Virus record (IMG/VR): IMGVR_UViG_3300026097_000011
Coordinates: 1-64,000 of that record
Origin: a virus
DNA length: 64,000 bases
Direction: 5' to 3' (one strand)
Shown here: piece after piece, positions 1-54,703 of the stretch
Numbering within the stretch: the stretch's first letter is position 1
How the letters are laid out: each line of letters opens with the position of its first letter
The notes under the pieces: model-generated
Database searches by the model: none
What the model was told of the DNA's origin: nothing
What the model saw: the letters and a program-made list of their open reading frames with translations, nothing else
Position numbers and translations under genes: made by a program

Positions 1-13
1 TGTCCGTTATGTA

Positions 14-226
14 TCATTTAACCCAATTCTTATGCATTTCACTTTCTCTGTGTACTCTTATCATATTAGTTTTTCCACATCTACACTGTGTTATTAGAAA
101 ATTTGTATTGTTTTCCATAGGTATATTATACAATTTATTTTCAAATTCACACTTATGAAAACGATACATAACAGTGTATAACCAAAATAGTGGGTTAGGT
201 ATGTTAATTGCCCATTTTTTCTTCAT
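14..226 (-). CDS. Cassette 1 hypothetical protein (Cys-containing)
   Basis: 70-aa ORF; ATG lies in the loop of the attC-like site 166-298. Confidence 0.6.
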   Translation of the reverse strand: MKKKWAINIPNPLFWLYTVMYRFHKCEFENKLYNIPMENNTNFLITQCRCGKTNMIRVHRESEMHKNWVK

Positions 227-298
227 ATCAAGTTTGTTTTTATATTTAACATTTGTTTTTCAAAGTCCACTACTTCGGTTATATGTGAACCGTTAGCA
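166..298 (+). repeat. attC-like site 1
   Basis: ACATAAC..TATAACCAAAATAGTGG(177-193), 73-nt loop, CCACTACTTCGGTTATA(267-283)..GTTAGCA. Confidence 0.8.
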
Positions 299-493
299 AG
301 CATACAACTGACCGTTAAGCATAAAACAAGGGTTTTCTCCCTTATTATATCTAACGTCAGGTGTTTTGTCAAACATTACCATATATCCAACAATCACCTT
401 GCTATCTAAATCACTCTTGATAATCTTGGTTACTTCTCCTTCTCCAAGAAATCCAGAGTCCTTAACTCTTTCACCTATCTTAAATCTTTTCAT
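293..493 (-). CDS. Cassette 2 hypothetical protein (small SH3/KOW-like barrel, FKIGERV start)
   Basis: 66-aa ORF filling the cassette; stop codon coincides with the GTTA core. Confidence 0.7.
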   Translation of the reverse strand: MKRFKIGERVKDSGFLGEGEVTKIIKSDLDSKVIVGYMVMFDKTPDVRYNKGENPCFMLNGQLYAC

Positions 494-514
494 ATTTTAA
501 AATTAAAGTACGCT

Positions 515-576
515 TGCTAACAACGGCTATATGTCCATATTCGTACCTCATACGGCACATAGCCAAAACGTTATAA
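515..576 (+). repeat. attC-like site 2 (62 bp)
   Basis: TGCTAAC-aac-GGCTATATGtCCATAT..ATACGGCACATAGCC-aaaac-GTTATAA, with one extra base in the left arm. Confidence 0.85.
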
Positions 577-586
577 ACAATAAAAA

Positions 587-823
587 TTAATGTTTAGGGT
601 GTTTTTTTATCTTAGCCCAATAACAAACTTTATTGTTTGCAACCGTGTGACCTCTTCTATCGCTACAAGGTGCATTTAATAACCATCTACCTCTATAAGA
701 TATATAACCTGTGTACTCGTTAAAATAGTCACACTCACTTCCATCTTTTAATAAACTTCTTACCAAAACTAAAACATTTACACATTCTTCTGGTTTTTCT
801 TTGGTTACGTCTATCCATTTCAT
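587..823 (-). CDS. Cassette 3 DUF551-like phage protein
   Basis: MKWIDVTKEKPEECVNVLV...VCYWAKI pattern typical of DUF551; ATG at 823 preferred. Confidence 0.65.
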   Translation of the reverse strand: MKWIDVTKEKPEECVNVLVLVRSLLKDGSECDYFNEYTGYISYRGRWLLNAPCSDRRGHTVANNKVCYWAKIKKHPKH

Positions 824-835
824 AATTTTAAAAAT

Positions 836-966
836 ATATAACAACGTGTATAAACAAAAGCTATTTAAGTCTTTACCGTTGTTTTGTTAGTATTTATTTA
901 AGTTATTTTTAATCCAATATTTAATTCTTTTTTATACGCTTCAATTAATACACAATTCCGTTAGGC
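836..966 (+). repeat. attC-like site 3 (more degenerate arms)
   Basis: ATATAAC-aac-GTGTATAAACAAAAGC...GCTTCAATTAATACAC-aattcc-GTTAGGC. Confidence 0.7.
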
Positions 967-972
967 GTAATG

Positions 973-1419
973 CTACCCAAGTAGCCAATAAACAATAGCC
1001 TTTCTTCTTAAATTATCTTCTTCATCATATAAGTTTCCACCCATTACTGCTATCGAAAGTTTGTATTCTTTTTCTCGCACTTGTAAAATAGGATGTGACC
1101 AAACGCTATGTGAGTGAAGCATATTAGAAGTCCACTGTCCATTAGTGTTGTACTTAACATTAAAAATCCATTCAAATAATTTAGTCCAATACTTCATTAC
1201 CCCACAGTTACCCATTATGAACCCAAAAAATAGTGCGTATATAAACCACATCATAAAAAATGCTTCACTCGGTATTCCATCAATAAAAAGCATTGGTAAA
1301 AAGAATACAAACGAGTATCGCATATACAAGAAAGGCATTGTAATCAAACCACACATACGCCTAACAACAGCTATATGTAATGCCTCTTTTTTCTTTAATT
1401 TAGTTTCTGTATTATTCAT
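973..1419 (-). CDS. Cassette 4 membrane protein
   Basis: Two hydrophobic segments; N-terminal 21 aa (..EALHIAVVRR) are read through the attC arm. Confidence 0.65.
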   Translation of the reverse strand: MNNTETKLKKKEALHIAVVRRMCGLITMPFLYMRYSFVFFLPMLFIDGIPSEAFFMMWFIYALFFGFIMGNCGVMKYWTKLFEWIFNVKYNTNGQWTSNMLHSHSVWSHPILQVREKEYKLSIAVMGGNLYDEEDNLRRKAIVYWLLG

Positions 1420-1489
1420 TATTTTAGTCTTTTAAGTTAGTGTAGTAATTTATTCAAGGTCGGCACTACACATAGCCAAACTGTTATGA
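1359..1489 (+). repeat. attC-like site 4 (last of array)
   Basis: GCCTAAC-aaca-GCTATATGTAATGCC(1370-1384), 77-nt loop, GGCACTACACATAGC(1462-1476)-caaact-GTTATGA. Confidence 0.85.
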
Positions 1490-1515
1490 GTAATAAATTT
1501 TGATATATCTAATTT

Positions 1516-2421
1516 TTATAGGAAAAATTTACGATATTTAAATAGAGCTAGTTCCTTTGACTTTGCTTCAATTTCTATATCGAATATAGAACCAATATCA
1601 GGTATTTTACAGTATATATAATCAGAATGAGATCGCTCAATTACAGAATCATCCTCAAATAATTTACGACTATTACTAACGTGAGCAAGTGGACGAATAC
1701 CAGTTGGCCAAGTGGATGCAGCAAGCTCAGCTGCGTCGTCAGTAGATAAATCACCATCACAAAATAAATGGTGAAAGAAATCAAATGTGATAGGAATATC
1801 GATATGCTTGTATAAGCCATTGTATAAATCAACAACACTATATTGACTAGCTTTATCGTCGTTTTCTATAACTAATCTACGCTGAGTAGTATCAGCAAGT
1901 AATTTAAAATTGGTAACAAAACGTGCAAGTGTCGAATCTTTATCGCCATAGCTGCCGCCAACGTGTATATTGAGACTATACTTATGTGTGGCAGGTAGTC
2001 CCATAAGATCAAGTATGCGACTATGCTTATCAAGATCGTCAATAGAATTAAGGACTACTTTTTCAGTTGGCGAAGGCAATACACAATATTGACCTGGGTG
2101 AAAGCCTACACGCAAATCATTAGCTAATACATAGTCGCCAATTTGAGTGAGCAGGGATTGTATACTATCGAAATTTGGTAAATCCTCAAATCGATACTCA
2201 GACATCCAAGGAAATAAACTGCTTGAAAACCTAAAGACTCGGATGTCATGTTCGACATTCCATTCAAGAACTTTTAGTAAGTCTTGAAGATTAAGCTCGG
2301 CTAATTCGCCTGCATATTCAAGGCCTCGAGCTTTGAACGTTTTTTTGATCATGCCACGATTGGTAGTAATACCGAGTGGCTTAAGTGTTAGATTAATACA
2401 GCAATATCCTAAATTATTCAT
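1516..2421 (-). CDS. uvsE: UV DNA damage endonuclease
   Basis: LGYCCIN, FRFSSSLFP, FHPGQY, NIHVGG, IENDDK, FDFFHH, HSDY, EAKSKE motifs. Confidence 0.95.
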   Translation of the reverse strand: MNNLGYCCINLTLKPLGITTNRGMIKKTFKARGLEYAGELAELNLQDLLKVLEWNVEHDIRVFRFSSSLFPWMSEYRFEDLPNFDSIQSLLTQIGDYVLANDLRVGFHPGQYCVLPSPTEKVVLNSIDDLDKHSRILDLMGLPATHKYSLNIHVGGSYGDKDSTLARFVTNFKLLADTTQRRLVIENDDKASQYSVVDLYNGLYKHIDIPITFDFFHHLFCDGDLSTDDAAELAASTWPTGIRPLAHVSNSRKLFEDDSVIERSHSDYIYCKIPDIGSIFDIEIEAKSKELALFKYRKFFL

Positions 2422-2449
2422 ATTGTTATATTACTAAAAATATATAGAA

Positions 2450-2611
2450 TTATTCACTTTTGTTTCTTCTATTATATTTTTTTGTAGATCCATATGGACA
2501 GTGTTTACATTTATTATTACAACAAAATCCTCTTTTTAAATGGTATTTCTCAGTAAATACTTTGTACCCATCCTTATTGATATAATAATCTTCTCCTTTT
2601 ATTAATCCCAC
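2450..2611 (-). CDS. Small Cys-rich DUF5522-like protein (not in ORF track)
   Basis: Manual translation from GTG: MGLIKGEDYYINKDGYKVFTEKYHLKRGFCCNNKCKHCPYG..., 53 aa. Confidence 0.8.
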   Translation of the reverse strand: MGLIKGEDYYINKDGYKVFTEKYHLKRGFCCNNKCKHCPYGSTKKYNRRNKSE

Positions 2612-3174
2612 CAGTGTCTAATATTATGTTCAATGAATGCCCATAATAAACGATGGGCTTTTTCTTGTTTAAGTCTAGATTCTTTCATCAACTTTCTTTG
2701 TATTTCATCGATTTCAGCTATTCGTTCAGGAGTTTCAGTAAGTTCATAGTTTTGTTTAAGAAATGAGCTATCATCTCCTTTTCCAGTATCAATGAATTTA
2801 TGTTCTAACAGTTCAGCTCCATATAGTTCTACCATCTTAGCTTGATATTCACAGGAATAATCTTCGTCATATACCTTCTTCATCAATGCAATTGCAGTTC
2901 TTACTCTTGTAGCACTATGTTTTGATTCTACACACATAGCATTATCTGATTCCATTCGCTCTGCGATATCTTCTAATTTAGCTGAGAATATTTCAGTTGC
3001 ATATCTATAATCAAAATCATATCCTTTCCAAATCATTGGAACATACTTTCGCAATTGTTTAAATTGATGATTCTTTCTACGAAAAAAGTATTTAAAATTC
3101 CTCCATACTTTCGCAATTCCCTTAACTCTGATTTTATCGAGTATATTGGGATCCTTTATTCCTTTACTTATCAT
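2602..3174 (-). CDS. Hypothetical phage protein
   Basis: 190-aa ORF, coupled to neighbours. Confidence 0.75.
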   Translation of the reverse strand: MISKGIKDPNILDKIRVKGIAKVWRNFKYFFRRKNHQFKQLRKYVPMIWKGYDFDYRYATEIFSAKLEDIAERMESDNAMCVESKHSATRVRTAIALMKKVYDEDYSCEYQAKMVELYGAELLEHKFIDTGKGDDSSFLKQNYELTETPERIAEIDEIQRKLMKESRLKQEKAHRLLWAFIEHNIRHWWD

Positions 3175-3569
3175 TAGTCAAGTGTTGGCCAAACGAACTC
3201 ATAATGTCCATCTTTCATTTGATTTACTTTAATAGTTCGAATGATCTTTCCATTCTCTTTTCCATATTCAATCTCAGCTTGAACTCCAACTGATTGCTTA
3301 ACTAAGTTATCTGACATTTCAACTACCCATATTTCTTCACTCCAATCAATGAACGAGTAATCGATCTTTTTCCAAACTTCCCATGTACCAAGTAATTCCT
3401 TTTCGTACTTGCCATCATGTATAGATGCTTGTACAATTGGATGCGACATTGAAATTGGAGAAAGTGGAATGTGACCCATCTTAATAATTTCATAAGCTGC
3501 ATGATTTGCCATCTCAAAACTTTTTTCCTCTACACGAGTGTAAGGAATTGCTACATATATTCTTTTCAT
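3174..3569 (-). CDS. Nucleoside 2-deoxyribosyltransferase-fold protein (DUF1937/DUF4406-like)
   Basis: IYVAIPYT, SPISMSH, SVGVQAEIEY motifs. Confidence 0.75.
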   Translation of the reverse strand: MKRIYVAIPYTRVEEKSFEMANHAAYEIIKMGHIPLSPISMSHPIVQASIHDGKYEKELLGTWEVWKKIDYSFIDWSEEIWVVEMSDNLVKQSVGVQAEIEYGKENGKIIRTIKVNQMKDGHYEFVWPTLD

Positions 3570-3793
3570 AACTTTGCACTTATTTGTTCGAATGCCAGTA
3601 CTGGATTCTCGGTTGCGAATCCATCGATACCACCATCCGGTTCTGTAAATAATTTACCAACATCATATTTAGCCCAAATAAATTGGCCAAATCTTAAGTC
3701 ATTTTCATTTCTTCCTTTACCATATTTAATATGCCATTTGACTAACTCATCCATTAGAAGATCACTAGTCAATTCTAAATTACTTGCTTCCAT
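3566..3793 (-). CDS. Hypothetical protein
   Basis: ORF from ATG 3793 (MEASNL..), LRFGQ motif common in phage proteins. Confidence 0.65.
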   Translation of the reverse strand: MEASNLELTSDLLMDELVKWHIKYGKGRNENDLRFGQFIWAKYDVGKLFTEPDGGIDGFATENPVLAFEQISAKL

Positions 3794-4040
3794 GTTTTTG
3801 GTGTAATGCGTTAGTAAATGTTTCTTCTCCTCCTGTACTTGAATTTTTAAATACAATATGAGTAGTCCCAGGAGTTTCTCTAAATACCTTCTTAGCAAAT
3901 GCTTTAGGATAGTGAATGTTCACATATGATTTAATTGATTTTCCAGGGCAATATACTTCCGCTGTTATTGGCGAGTCTTTCTCTGCTAATTTATTCTTTC
4001 TGAATTCTGTTCCTACAAAGAACTTATCTTGTTTAGACAT
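3780..4040 (-). CDS. Hypothetical protein
   Basis: 86-aa ORF abutting epimerase. Confidence 0.65.
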   Translation of the reverse strand: MSKQDKFFVGTEFRKNKLAEKDSPITAEVYCPGKSIKSYVNIHYPKAFAKKVFRETPGTTHIVFKNSSTGGEETFTNALHQKHGSK

Positions 4041-4913
4041 TTATTTTATTTTATGTTTAATATATCTAGTTAATGAATGTTGAGGGTTCCAATCTAATTT
4101 TTCATTAGTATCTGTTTCTATCTCAACTGCGTTAATACGTTCTCCTCTTCTTTCAGGAATAAGTCGATATTTATGATCAAATAATTCAGCAACTTCCTTA
4201 ATTGTGTAAGTACGTCCTGATCTTAAGTGCCATTCTCCGTTTAATCCTTTTTCAACCGAGGCAATTACTCCTCTTACTATATCATCAATATGTGTAAAGT
4301 CCCTAGACTGAGTCCCTGGTGAAACTACTGTTAATTCTTCTCCATTATCATATTGTCTCTCGAATATTCCAACTACTGTTGCATAATCTCCTGATGTAAT
4401 TTGACCTGGACCGTACACATTAAAGAAATAGCAAATTTCATATTCTAAATTATACCACTCTTTGTAGTTTTTTATAAGTTCTACTCCTTTTGCTTTCATC
4501 CAAGCATATGGAGATAGATTCTCATCCTTACCATCGTTTCCGAATTTTGAACTTGATGCTGAATATATTAACTTAGCTCCCCATCGTCTGCACATTTCAA
4601 GAACTCTAGTCGTACCGTGTAAATTTGTTTTAAGTACATAATCGATGTCTTCAAAAGAAGATACTATTCTAGAGTATTCACCGAAATGAAATACTATATC
4701 GAACGTACCTTTATCCTTTTGGAAATACTTTTCAATATCCCAAGTGTCTGCATGGATTACGTCTATTCCCTTTGGAATATTATTGAAAGTTCCAGTGAAA
4801 AAATTATCTAGAATGGTAATCTTCGAATGAGGATATTTTTCAAGAATTTGTTTAATTAGATTTGATCCTACAAATCCGGCTCCACCTGTTACTAATATTT
4901 TCTTATTGTTCAT
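4041..4913 (-). CDS. NAD-dependent sugar-nucleotide epimerase/dehydratase
   Basis: VTGGAGFVGSN, YAWMK (YxxxK), FNVYGP, RDFTHIDD. Confidence 0.92.
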   Translation of the reverse strand: MNNKKILVTGGAGFVGSNLIKQILEKYPHSKITILDNFFTGTFNNIPKGIDVIHADTWDIEKYFQKDKGTFDIVFHFGEYSRIVSSFEDIDYVLKTNLHGTTRVLEMCRRWGAKLIYSASSSKFGNDGKDENLSPYAWMKAKGVELIKNYKEWYNLEYEICYFFNVYGPGQITSGDYATVVGIFERQYDNGEELTVVSPGTQSRDFTHIDDIVRGVIASVEKGLNGEWHLRSGRTYTIKEVAELFDHKYRLIPERRGERINAVEIETDTNEKLDWNPQHSLTRYIKHKIK

Positions 4914-5205
4914 CTTCACCAGCACTTTCAGGTTCCCCAATTGTTATCCACATTCCTTCTGTAAAATCTGATGTATCTTCAACAACATCATCAAGAGCAA
5001 TTACTTGAATTTGTCCACCGGTGTTAGCAACCATTATAAGACTATCTTTAGGACCAAAATATCCTTCTATTTCTCCTTTGGCTTTAACTAGTATTCCTTC
5101 TCCGATTGGTATGATTGATTGTAATGCTTGGGCAAAAATTAACGTCCCAGCACTAAGTTCCTCTTGTGAATATTCTCGAGGTTCTTCGTTTGATAAATCT
5201 GTCAT
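4903..5205 (-). CDS. Hypothetical acidic protein
   Basis: 100-aa ORF behind putative promoter at 5225-5251. Confidence 0.7.
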   Translation of the reverse strand: MTDLSNEEPREYSQEELSAGTLIFAQALQSIIPIGEGILVKAKGEIEGYFGPKDSLIMVANTGGQIQVIALDDVVEDTSDFTEGMWITIGEPESAGEDEQ

Positions 5206-5224
5206 TATAATTGAATTTAATAGT

Positions 5225-5251
5225 ATTATACAGATTTATTTTTACTGGTTT
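5225..5251 (-). promoter_or_regulatory. Putative early/middle promoter AAAC-N17-TATAAT
   Basis: Same motif and spacing at 27184-27210 and 61782-61808. Confidence 0.5.
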
Positions 5252-6801
5252 AGGTAAAAGTCTAATTTTTTTTGCATTTTATCTAGTTTTGAACCAGATT
5301 GTTTACCGAGAAGTTGTTTTTTAGCCTTTTCATAATTAAGATCTAATAATGCTCTTTCTAATCGCTTTTTAGATTCTTCAGGGTTTGATATATTATGTGT
5401 TAATGACATAAGACCTCCTCTTATTCCGATTTCATATATTCTATCTATTTTACGCTTACTGTTAATTCCTTTATTATGTCTAAATTGTGATCTATCTTCT
5501 GGAACTAATTTATATAACGAGTCAATTAGAGTATTGGATTCAGCAATTTGATCTTGAGTAAGTTCTTCTTTTTCATTATCTTCTATTTCTTCTAGTTCCT
5601 TTTGCCTTTTAATAATATCTTCCACTTGATCTTCTATTTTATTAGGATCAAGAGTATCGAGCTTAGACCATTTCTTTTTGTCTTCGTCTGACATTCCATT
5701 TTTTCTAAGCTGTACTACTGACTTCATGTAATTATAATATAACTCACGCAACCTAGCAGTTAGACTAGAATCTCTCTTAAATGATACTTTAGTTGAGGCT
5801 TTTCCACTAGATATTTCCTCAATATCACTTACAAGTTCATCAGGTTCTTTATCTTCTATCATTTCATTATAAATATCTACTTCTAATTGAAGATCGGGAG
5901 TAATTTTAACCTGATCTCCATCTACATAGAAGGAATCGTCCTCTAATAAAATAGTAGATACATCATCTACTTCGATGTCACCTGCTGGAGGAGTCCAATA
6001 ATCTCCAGGGTCGTATGTTTCGTTAATAGTGGCATTTGTTGAATATACGATGTTGAATAGTGCTCCATCTTTATCATTTGATAATCCTAGCAGTTTACGA
6101 TCCTCGTCACTTATTACTCCTAATCCAAGATCAGTTGGAAATAATCCAATTCCATCCAAATAATCTATGTATGCATCAGGTATTTTATCTTGATTGGATG
6201 TCAACGTCATAGCTATATCTGTAATATAATCATCTATTATACCCTCATTATGTTCTACATTAGTTAAATTATCTCCGCCTTCATGAACATCAACATCAAC
6301 TAGTTTTAAAACAGTAGGCCTACCGGTGATCAATTTTAATACTTCTCCTAATAGATATGATTTTGCAGATTCATCACTAGACGTTGAGTCTTTTGATTCT
6401 AATATTAGCTCATGATTAAACAAACGTGTTCCTATTTCTCTAAGTGCACTACCTATATCTAGATGTTTCAGAGTAATCCAATGAAATGGAGTCTTATTAT
6501 GATTAAGAACTACACTCGGCCTACCAGGAGTTTTCATATTAAATACTCCTTTTAAACCATCTTCTCCTTTATAATCAATTTTTCTACCTGCAAATTTATT
6601 TCCACCTTTGTGAATAACTCGATATATAGTATCACCTATAAATACCATCTTTATTCCGGGTTTTATCTCTGCATATCCATTAATAGTAGTTACATAAAGG
6701 AACCGACCTTCTTTAGTTGGGCGTCCCTTGATCAATATAACGGATCCCCTCCCTATTGATTCATTGAGTTTTTCGGAATAAGGTAAAATGTACTTGTTCA
6801 T
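5242..6801 (-). CDS. Hypothetical late protein
   Basis: 519 aa; ATAAATA upstream; N-terminal ILPYSEKLNE motif. Confidence 0.75.
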   Translation of the reverse strand: MNKYILPYSEKLNESIGRGSVILIKGRPTKEGRFLYVTTINGYAEIKPGIKMVFIGDTIYRVIHKGGNKFAGRKIDYKGEDGLKGVFNMKTPGRPSVVLNHNKTPFHWITLKHLDIGSALREIGTRLFNHELILESKDSTSSDESAKSYLLGEVLKLITGRPTVLKLVDVDVHEGGDNLTNVEHNEGIIDDYITDIAMTLTSNQDKIPDAYIDYLDGIGLFPTDLGLGVISDEDRKLLGLSNDKDGALFNIVYSTNATINETYDPGDYWTPPAGDIEVDDVSTILLEDDSFYVDGDQVKITPDLQLEVDIYNEMIEDKEPDELVSDIEEISSGKASTKVSFKRDSSLTARLRELYYNYMKSVVQLRKNGMSDEDKKKWSKLDTLDPNKIEDQVEDIIKRQKELEEIEDNEKEELTQDQIAESNTLIDSLYKLVPEDRSQFRHNKGINSKRKIDRIYEIGIRGGLMSLTHNISNPEESKKRLERALLDLNYEKAKKQLLGKQSGSKLDKMQKKLDFYLNQ

Positions 6802-54592: not shown

Positions 54593-54615
54593 TCGATAGA
54601 TTAACTAGATATAAG

Positions 54616-54645
54616 AAAAGGAAGACTACGGTCTTCCTTTTTTTT
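54616..54645 (+). terminator. Intrinsic terminator after capsid gene
   Basis: GGAAGAC-tacg-GTCTTCC followed by T8. Confidence 0.92.
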
Positions 54646-54703
54646 GTTATAAACTTTGGGATATTAGATATTGTCGTTATAAATAATAAAAAGACCATAT
54701 CAT

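Follow-up and report, generated by a model that had tools for sequence, protein, structure and literature searches.

Where does translation of a small gene begin when a recombination-site hairpin stands in front of it, and does that hairpin belong to the gene before it or to the gene behind it? These questions are raised by the virus record IMGVR_UViG_3300026097_000011 of IMG/VR, of which we analysed the first 64,000 nucleotides (nt), hereafter called the window. Positions 1-1500 of the window, read on the minus strand, form the terminal part of an integron-like array of cassettes carried by a large phage. Two of its open reading frames (ORFs), ORF 14-226 and ORF 973-1419, have in-frame ATG codons inside the loops of attC-like hairpins. 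We consider it probable that the loop of such long-loop hairpins holds the real start of the gene, that the hairpin and the gene move together as one unit bounded by TAAC, and that a rarer exchange at the GTT core of the hairpin swaps the N-terminal heads of the encoded proteins. No published description of such a loop-start cassette arrangement was found in the literature on phage integrons, attC translation and huge-phage hairpin cassettes.

Anatomy of the attC-like hairpins

Every gene in the first 6.8 kb of the window lies on the minus strand, as do all the sites and ORFs of the array described here. Three of the sites, A, B and D, can be folded into long, imperfect hairpins whose ends are TAAC and GTTA. 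Site D (1362..1486, 125 nt) consists of TAAC at 1486-1483, a 5′ arm at 1478-1462, a 77-nt loop at 1461-1385, a 3′ arm at 1384-1370 and GTTA at 1365-1362. In site A (169..295, 127 nt), TAAC at 295-292 is followed by an inner 5′ arm at 279-267, a 73-nt loop at 266-194, an inner 3′ arm at 193-181 and GTTA at 172-169. When the cores were forced to pair, folding with DNA parameters gave −9.8 kcal/mol for site A and −7.5 kcal/mol for site D, and RNA folding gave −31.7 and −28.4 kcal/mol. The A+T content is 77% in the loop of site A and 79% in that of site D, with A alone accounting for 53% and 57%, respectively. An Rfam search of window 1-3000 returned nothing relevant; the sole match was a chance hit to a small nucleolar RNA (E = 0.46).

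The preliminary description of this locus, made from the letters of the DNA, had placed the ATGs of both ORFs in 73- and 77-nt AT-rich loops, with frames that stay open through the arm and the GTT core. Loop sizes and positions proved to be exact, and both frames do run through the 3′ arm and the core. ORF 973-1419 (973..1419) encodes a 148-residue membrane protein that starts with MNNTETKLKKKEALHIAVVRRMCGL. Its loop ATG (1417..1419), the proposed true start, lies 42 nt into the loop of site D; residues 1-19 form a head encoded by the site, and the body begins with RRMCGL. ORF 14-226 (14..226) encodes a 70-residue Cys-rich protein that starts with MKKKWAINIPNPLFWLYTVMYRF, and its stop codon overlaps the next TAAC core. 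The first ATG of the site A loop, at offset 14, is out of frame, and the in-frame ATG that we propose as the true start (224..226) is located at offset 40. The GTT core is codon 19 in both ORFs. Each ORF also has an in-frame ATG adjacent to the core, which is located 9 nt after GTT in ORF 973-1419 (1354..1356, MCGL) and directly after it, at +3, in ORF 14-226 (167..169, MYRF).

Similar sites occur widely in other viral contigs. Relatives of the recombinase that adjoins the array (described below) numbered 215 in the viral contig collection, and 80 loci were kept, many of them on contigs of 100-360 kb. Sites were detected by aligning paired arms between AAC and GTT; sites A and D scored 22 and 20, respectively. 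An exact-stem hairpin scan missed known sites, and a scan based on minimum free energy was rejected because of too many false matches (0.79 vs 0.26 per kb upstream vs downstream of the recombinase gene at −11 kcal/mol). The detector found 402 sites upstream of the recombinase gene (1.0 per kb) and 27 downstream of it (0.05 per kb), a 20-fold difference. For the analysis of reading frames, 335 strict sites were grouped into 243 sequence clusters. Sites about 80% identical to site D are present in loci L019, L025 and L048.

Stem pairing reaches 97% over 12 positions in the 243 non-redundant relatives, with all four pair types represented, compared with 46% when the arms are dealt among sites; this statistic is partly circular, and loses weight accordingly, because the detector requires paired arms. 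The crossover core of attC is written 5′-G↓TTRRRY-3′ (PMC9892861). Only TAAC and GTTA are constant in the present sites, and the full 7-mer core consensus is found in some cores (e.g., GTTAGGC in site D) and not in others. Bulged bases are rare, amounting to 25 in the 5′ arm and 9 in the 3′ arm among 4172 aligned positions. The unpaired spacers are asymmetric in 193 of the 243 sites, with 5 nt on the 5′ side and 1-2 nt on the 3′ side. Arm mismatches on the coding strand comprise 314 G·T and only 23 A·C; in 285 of these mismatches the G is in the 5′ arm and the T in the 3′ arm. This bias fits RNA folding and folding of the sense DNA strand alike.

Loop length has two ranges, 10-40 nt and 60-80 nt, and the sites with a loop ATG have loops of 71-76 nt. 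Two long-loop sites of another kind, L016:2206-2331 and L016:2597-2722, hold G+C-rich segments resembling the T arm of tRNA instead of an A-rich leader and a start codon.

Start codons within the loops

Because AT-rich loops often contain an ATG and short extensions are often open, the loop starts might be a product of chance. The window by itself makes a weak case, with a loop ATG in two of its four sites, and after shuffling of the loops about 12% of sites still show such an open in-frame ATG. However, a frame of at least 40 codons passes uninterrupted through the core in 133 cluster representatives, and 85 of these contain a loop ATG that is in frame and not followed by a stop before the core is reached; loop shuffling predicts 15.4 ± 3.6, and the other two frames give 15 and 16. 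The observed number lies about 19 standard deviations above the shuffles. Loop length is tightly held at the 71-76 nt mentioned above, and the start context is common to control genes, as described below. Chance is therefore a practically negligible explanation. The distance from the ATG to GTT clusters at 54-63 nt and is 54 nt in both window sites. Differences within the loop-coded stretch are distributed over codon positions 1, 2 and 3 as 226/177/311, a count taken from 85 pairs that are not independent.

The sequence around the loop ATGs has the character of a start region. In 82 loop ATG contexts, A occurs at a frequency of 0.79-0.82 at positions −11 to −13 and 0.72 at −3, and a Shine-Dalgarno (SD)-like motif is found in 1%. 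The profile is the same as that of 383 control gene starts, with a stronger signature (A at −11 to −14, −3 and −2) in the loops. The A-rich positions coincide with determinants of initiation in Flavobacterium johnsoniae, where A-3, A-6, A-12, A-13 and an unstructured initiation region have been described (PMC6847099). We trained a start-context matrix on 100 long-ORF starts of the contig that holds the window. The loop ATGs scored +1.3 (ORF 973-1419) and +2.1 (ORF 14-226), corresponding to the 95th and 98th percentiles of 730 internal ATGs. The core-adjacent ATGs scored −9.0 (MCGL) and −7.3 (MYRF), below every training start and like internal codons. The predicted unpaired fraction from −20 to +15 is 0.89 and 0.72 at the loop ATGs of ORF 973-1419 and ORF 14-226, compared with 0.26 and 0.09 at MCGL and MYRF, and the wider family behaves likewise (0.66 for loop ATGs vs 0.21 for core ATGs, n = 84). 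Of 80 loop leaders, 26 also contain the hexamer AACTTA (often as AACTTAAA), where 1.2 would be expected; it lies about 19 nt before the ATG, and the copy in site D is at 1441-1436. This hexamer may be a promoter box or an initiation element.

A protein database search gave 22 homologues of ORF 973-1419, and a pattern-based search of viral contigs for this ORF found no relatives. In this family, 22 of the 23 called N-termini lie upstream of the internal Met of MCGL, the basic pair just before this residue is conserved, and the Met itself is retained by 11 of the 23 sequences, the other 12 having I or L in its place. For ORF 14-226, eight database relatives and the loci L001 and L002 were aligned with the window protein. 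In these 11 sequences, M1 is invariant and the motif NPLFW persists down to 57% identity; three of them have R, K or I in place of the internal Met of MYRF. The homologue in L002 follows another hairpin, a short one, and here too an upstream ATG is in frame. On this 8-kb contig, L002:270-520 is an insert between direct repeats of about 25 nt that begin with TAACC, a geometry unlike that of the arrays, and the stop codon of the upstream gene is located in the loop, right before the in-frame ATG.

Translation starting only at MYRF and MCGL was the alternative that the preliminary description had set against its own proposal; the upstream in-frame ATGs would then be untranslated features of the site. 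Both window ORFs do have such an ATG, and known domains tend to begin after the core. Five of 85 loop-started cassettes gave a Pfam match, and four of these five domains begin at residue 24-30 with profile position 1-4; because most cassettes are ORFans, this argument rests on four proteins. In distant relatives of ORF 973-1419 the head is no more than 1-9 residues long, and one homologue, P0017, starts at the Met in question. The alternative is nevertheless contradicted by the homologues, of which 12 of 23 and 3 of 11 lack the internal Met. The frame-specific excess of open loop ATGs (85 vs about 15), the weak context and low predicted accessibility of the core ATGs, and the site-D-like hairpins in L025 and L048 that have no alternative ATG point in the same direction. 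We regard exclusive initiation at the core ATGs as very unlikely.

Several observations speak for a more complex use of the loop ATGs and weigh against the simple reading in which they are the gene starts. The core-adjacent ATGs of both window ORFs would allow a shorter isoform. The ATG right after GTT in the Lar-like cassette of L047 corresponds to the usual N-terminus of its Pfam family, and in L062 an ATG 27 nt after the core is located at the start of the exonuclease domain. Among 129 long-loop clusters, 81 have a loop ATG that is open for at least 40 codons past the core; in the remaining 48, the ORF passes the core but is short (28), it ends before the core (10), or there is no ATG (10). 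The N-termini of database homologues are themselves predictions of gene callers.

These points could mean that both starts are used, or that the loop ORF is mainly a leader whose ribosomes melt the hairpin and allow, or couple to, initiation at the core ATG, the frame being kept because an out-of-frame overlap would be harmful. An ATG at +3 after the core is present in 22 of 162 sites with a frame open through the core, and the clusters whose loop ORF is short (28 + 10 of 129) often have a separate ATG gene afterwards. Integrons offer a precedent in ORF-11 of attI1 and in short ORFs in attC (PMC8876359). However, homologues of both window proteins that lack the internal Met keep the residues upstream of it, and in 16 of 96 loop-ATG sites the frame contains no further ATG, with many others having one only more than 40 nt away. 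The core ATGs are in an internal-type context and in a predicted stem, and the divergence biased to codon position 3 suggests selection on the loop-coded peptide. Dual or leader-type use is thus unlikely, although it deserves some weight. A search for RNA runs that contain window 1-2500 gave none. Judged from these sequence comparisons, translation of ORF 14-226 and ORF 973-1419 most likely starts at the loop ATGs.

Cassette junctions, recombinase and N-terminal heads

The boundaries of the moving unit were examined in blocks of similarity between arrays. Of 128 internal left ends, 51 are located at the TAAC on the 5′ side of a hairpin. Among the assignable right ends, 14 are at the next TAAC and about 5 at GTT, and most right ends are near no strong site. 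Individual loci illustrate the same boundaries. Window 295-8 corresponds to L001 2933-3219 with 91% identity and has TAAC at both ends, with a different gene upstream. The 3′ end of uvdE and its TAAC match four loci, and the similarity stops at the core. A 95%-identical relative from another metagenome covers window 958-1453, including the body, the 3′ arm and the loop of site D, and diverges just beyond the TAAC of site C; apart from this relative, the contigs of the four DNA runs examined matched the array through the site family alone. We assigned the hairpin to the gene behind it because the blocks run from TAAC to TAAC and because this relative keeps the loop, the 3′ arm and the ORF together. 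Two further candidate joints in metagenome contigs, 587->1361 and one across the loop of site D, represented similar arms of other sites with sides of less than 30 nt and were not used.

Since the cassette junctions are at TAAC, the hairpin normally travels with the gene that it starts, and the genes are oriented opposite to those of classical integron cassettes. In class 1 cassettes, an ORF with a short 5′ untranslated region is followed by attC at its 3′ end (PMC4670013), and the bottom strand of attC is recombined (PMC3458562, PMC2727003). The coding strand here has the make-up of the classical bottom strand, with AAC at the junction, and it is also the strand selected to fold (G·T 314 vs A·C 23). 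We infer that the TAAC junction is the main crossover and the GTT junction the rarer one; the latter possibly arises from the poorly folding opposite strand. Two points detract from this polarity. About 22 of the 128 left ends lie near the GTT core instead of TAAC, and the block-end counts, like those of the codon positions, were made on non-independent pairs.

The recombinase gene was located in sister contigs of the window (L003 and L004), which are 100% identical to it over window 131-6 and then continue past site Z (1..9; TAAC core at 9-6, truncated where the contig of the window ends), through a conserved AT-rich site, to the gene. The gene (L003:179-982) is on the same strand as the array and encodes a 267-residue Xer-like tyrosine recombinase with a score of 118.6 bits to Pfam Phage_integrase. 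Its best NCBIfam model is of the XerA type (174.8 bits, below the cut-off of 220), and it scores 160.4 bits with the integron-integrase model TIGR02249, below the cut-off of 265. When aligned with IntI4 (PDB 2a3v), its two matching blocks are 36 residues apart compared with 84 in IntI4, the IntI-specific segment being missing. The enzyme is taken to act on sites of the A and D type, although it must be weighed against this assignment that the contig of the window itself holds no tyrosine recombinase gene.

The closest isolated relatives of the recombinase, at about 38% identity, are encoded by phages of Polaribacter and Cellulophaga. The Polaribacter phage Freya has the closest isolated integrase (37.5% identical to the L003 recombinase), and ten isolates differ by up to 4.9 kb just before the integrase gene. 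No TAAC...GTTA hairpin array was seen by eye in the 4.2 kb upstream of the Freya integrase (L084, Freya_10, 1-4200).

The cores carry a signature of cassette exchange. In the window, the core after each site is the inverse complement of the core before the next site over 10, 6, 10 and 10 nt, whereas the two cores of a single site share only the four nucleotides GTTA. Over 300 pairs of consecutive sites, the flanking cores match at a mean of 4.83 of 7 nt, with complete matches in 130 pairs; the mean is 1.58 when partners are shuffled and 1.72 for the two cores of one site.

This signature bears on another explanation, in which the hairpins are mainly RNA elements for stability, processing or termination at gene starts and the cassette-like appearance is a result of homologous exchange, as in the promoter/stem-loop (PeSL) cassettes of T4-type phages. 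Such a role would produce the excess of G·T over A·C mismatches on the sense strand by selection for RNA folding, and shuffling mediated by PeSLs is an established phage precedent (PMC2839356). The sense-strand bias is equally compatible with folding of a DNA strand, however, and exact inverse complementarity of the cores around one ORF, but not of those in one site, speaks against RNA elements. The ends of similarity blocks at TAAC and the 20-fold enrichment of sites upstream of a tyrosine recombinase gene also oppose it. Expression signals do not accumulate in the hairpins: window 1-2600 contains 11 sigma-70-like promoters against 15.1 ± 3.2 expected, none inside the loop of site A or D, and none of four terminator-like hairpins is located in sites B, C and D or in the loop of site A, two being at 325-346, just outside site A. 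A mainly RNA-based role is highly improbable.

The residues encoded by the site recur on different proteins. The preliminary description had proposed a search for LHIAVV-like N-termini on unrelated domains, and the peptide LHIA(V/D)V was indeed found at the head of three unrelated ORFs; the site-D-like hairpins of L025 and L048 start unrelated ORFs of 69 and 71 residues that have no other ATG nearby. The arm-coded peptides NISDV (17 cassettes), HISDV (8) and NIGAV (4) are common to different cassettes, and the loop-coded peptides are often similar too. None of the 3160 body pairs among 80 non-redundant loop-started cassettes is related (BLASTP E < 1e-3). Within the ORF 973-1419 family, heads and bodies can have separate histories. 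P0003, the closest relative of the body, has 120 of 129 body residues identical but only 4 of 19 head residues, whereas P0001 has 113 of 129 and 16 of 19, respectively, and P0002 shares the arm-coded part of the head and not the loop-coded part. The break in identity between head and body falls between V and RR, at the GTT codon. Because heads are shared by unrelated bodies and the break is at this position, the heads appear to be add-ons that are re-paired with bodies at the core. The sequence comparisons thus support the view that the site-coded stretch of about 19 residues is an N-terminal head occurring on unrelated proteins.

The idea in the preliminary description that the site is a portable start module adding an N-terminal tag holds in large part. 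Shared head peptides on unrelated bodies and the head swap in P0003 agree with it. A hand-over of the head at each move does not, the junctions being at TAAC, and the head of ORF 14-226 is conserved together with the body throughout its family, which makes it a part of that family and not a generic tag; this counts against the exchange of heads as a general rule. A tuning of translation by hairpin folding, likewise proposed in that description, may be a further effect of the site. A role of the heads in capsid targeting or secretion was considered and set aside, as they are hydrophilic, with N, K and E accounting for 37% of their residues, and no common cleavage-like motif was seen. In two clusters, L010:371 and L067:735, the head reads as a lipoprotein signal peptide with a hydrophobic core that the arm and the GTT core encode, an assignment made by reading the sequence and not by a predictor.

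These observations can be combined into a mechanism. Each cassette would be one small gene between TAAC and GTTA cores. In long-loop sites such as A and D, the hairpin would stand at the 5′ end of its own gene, with the 5′ arm in the untranslated leader. The A-rich loop of about 75 nt would contain an SD-less initiation region and the start codon with about 10 codons; roughly codons 12-18 would come from the 3′ arm, and the GTT core would be codon 19. Ribosomes of a host that ignores SD sequences may bind at the unpaired loop and continue through the arm to the body, and the core-adjacent ATG, buried in the stem, would not be the main start. Cutting and joining at the 5′ TAAC would move hairpin and gene as a unit. 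A second, rarer exchange at the GTT codon would re-pair heads and bodies in frame, and the same head of about 19 residues would occur on unrelated proteins because of this exchange. The anatomy, the statistics, the conservation in families and the positions of junctions are computed, whereas initiation at the loop ATG, folding in the mRNA and the action of the recombinase on these sites are what we infer.

A further step is possible, but we offer it tentatively. The hairpin may be a two-point, in-frame recombination device, in which TAAC moves cassettes and GTT, always a Val codon in the main class, swaps an expression head onto any body. The swapped head would consist of a promoter-like box, an SD-less initiation region that the loop keeps open, and a start codon with about 19 residues. 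Such a device would have a built-in guarantee that genes acquired recently are translated in a host that ignores SD sequences and would shuffle N-termini combinatorially.

Setting of the array and relation to known systems

The contig that holds the window has 138,587 bases, a G+C content of 31.8% and no end repeats, the window being its first 64 kb. Because its completeness is estimated at 54%, this contig and the 127.5-kb sister contig (about 266 kb together) may be the halves of one phage genome broken at the array. A megablast search with window 1-6000 found no match among isolated phage genomes. The host is probably a member of Flavobacteriia; a Bacteroidota host fits because the nearest isolated relatives of the recombinase infect Polaribacter and Cellulophaga.

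In minus-strand order, the array is preceded by a gene for a UvdE endonuclease (2421-1516; Pfam E = 7.6e-55), which is followed by site D. The end of this gene has a TAAC core common to relatives, and the match of window 1532-1485 to L026-L028 and L030 stops at this core; no matching core was seen upstream of the start of the gene. The UvdE gene may be the inner boundary of the array or a fixed former cassette. Beyond ORF 973-1419, site C (839..963) is weak or degenerate, with cores that are present and complementary to neighbouring cores and arms that pair poorly. Its fold is ambiguous, and the detector did not pick it up. The small ORF after site C most likely starts at ATG 823, 19 nt past the core, and extends to 587. 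Site B (518..573, 56 nt; detector score 16) is a short-loop hairpin. In sites of this class the gene starts 16-50 nt after the core, and ORF 293-493 (493-293) accordingly starts 28 nt after the core of site B, outside the loop.

Strict sites on both strands of the whole 138.6-kb contig are limited to A and D, plus one hairpin at 54603-54648. The latter has TAAC...GTTA and a 46-nt G+C-rich stem followed by a run of T, and it resembles an ordinary bidirectional terminator and not a cassette site. In other arrays, L047:7707-7937 (a Lar-like restriction-alleviation protein) and L062:6485-7078 (an Rv2179c-like 3′-5′ exonuclease) are cassettes behind site-coded heads, which hints that the arrays carry counter-defence and nucleic-acid functions.

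The likeness to integrons is considerable. Each array is a series of single small genes between imperfect hairpins with AAC/GTT cores at their ends, the two cores that flank a gene are inverse complements of each other, the loops vary in length, one strand folds better, and a tyrosine recombinase gene adjoins the array. In classical attC sites, extrahelical bases of the stem mark the recombined strand, and an additional segment of IntI between the catalytic patches contacts these bases. In contrast, the present hairpins are 5′ and not 3′ of their own genes, with the opposite gene polarity, and include the start codon and about 19 codons. They have almost no bulged bases and have asymmetric unpaired spacers (5 vs 1-2 nt) instead, and the 267-residue Xer-like recombinase lacks the IntI-specific segment and scores below the integron-integrase cut-off. 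The system is therefore integron-like but departs from integrons in three features: the position of the site relative to the ORF, the extrahelical bases, and the IntI-specific segment together with the model score. The strand asymmetry of the stems, i.e., the G·T bias and the uneven spacers, might stand in for the extrahelical bases of classical attC sites. Clusters of attC sites without an integrase (CALINs) have been described in virulent phages by Qi et al. 2023 (PMC9892861); the available portion of that article mentions neither start codons in the sites nor a recombinase of the present kind.

Start codons inside att sites are otherwise known only from the short coupling ORFs of integrons, namely ORF-11 and ORF-18 in attI1 and short ORFs in class 1 attC sites (PMC8876359). 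As in the present loops, a start codon lies in the recombination site and the frame is open over the crossover, and translation has been proposed to counter the mRNA hairpin (same source). The integron ORFs, however, encode short separate peptides, depend on an SD sequence and aid the next gene by termination-reinitiation, whereas the frames described here continue into main proteins of 70 and 148 residues and are SD-less, with an SD-like motif in 1% of loops. The long-loop clusters with short ORFs only (28 + 10 of 129, as above) are the exception that resembles the ORF-11 type.

A second comparison is offered by the PeSL regulatory cassettes of T4-type phages, reportedly also the subject of a study by Comeau et al. 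in 2014. In the cassettes described by Arbiol et al. 2010 (PMC2839356), as far as the available part of that article goes, conserved stem-loop modules flank small non-essential phage genes, provide expression signals and mediate modular shuffling, features that recall the present sites. Those modules combine a sigma-70-like promoter with a terminator and are exchanged by recombination between repeats. In contrast, the sites described here show no excess of promoters or terminators, have precise junctions at 4-nt cores, adjoin a recombinase gene, and are partly coding.

Classical integron cassettes are promoterless, and their translation after capture is a recognised weakness: about a fifth have no signals for initiation, and ribosomes are impeded by attC hairpins in the mRNA (PMC8876359). 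The large phages considered here have the opposite layout, with the site ahead of the gene and the start codon in the loop, and the layout is widespread, as judged from the 215 relatives of the recombinase. Each cassette of this layout thus comes with an accessible start. If this reading is correct, the arm and core of a recombination site can code for protein, and phage accessory proteins would have exchangeable N-terminal heads in common. Gene callers that choose the core-adjacent ATG would mis-annotate such proteins, and the head would be a compact natural part for the expression of foreign genes in Bacteroidota.

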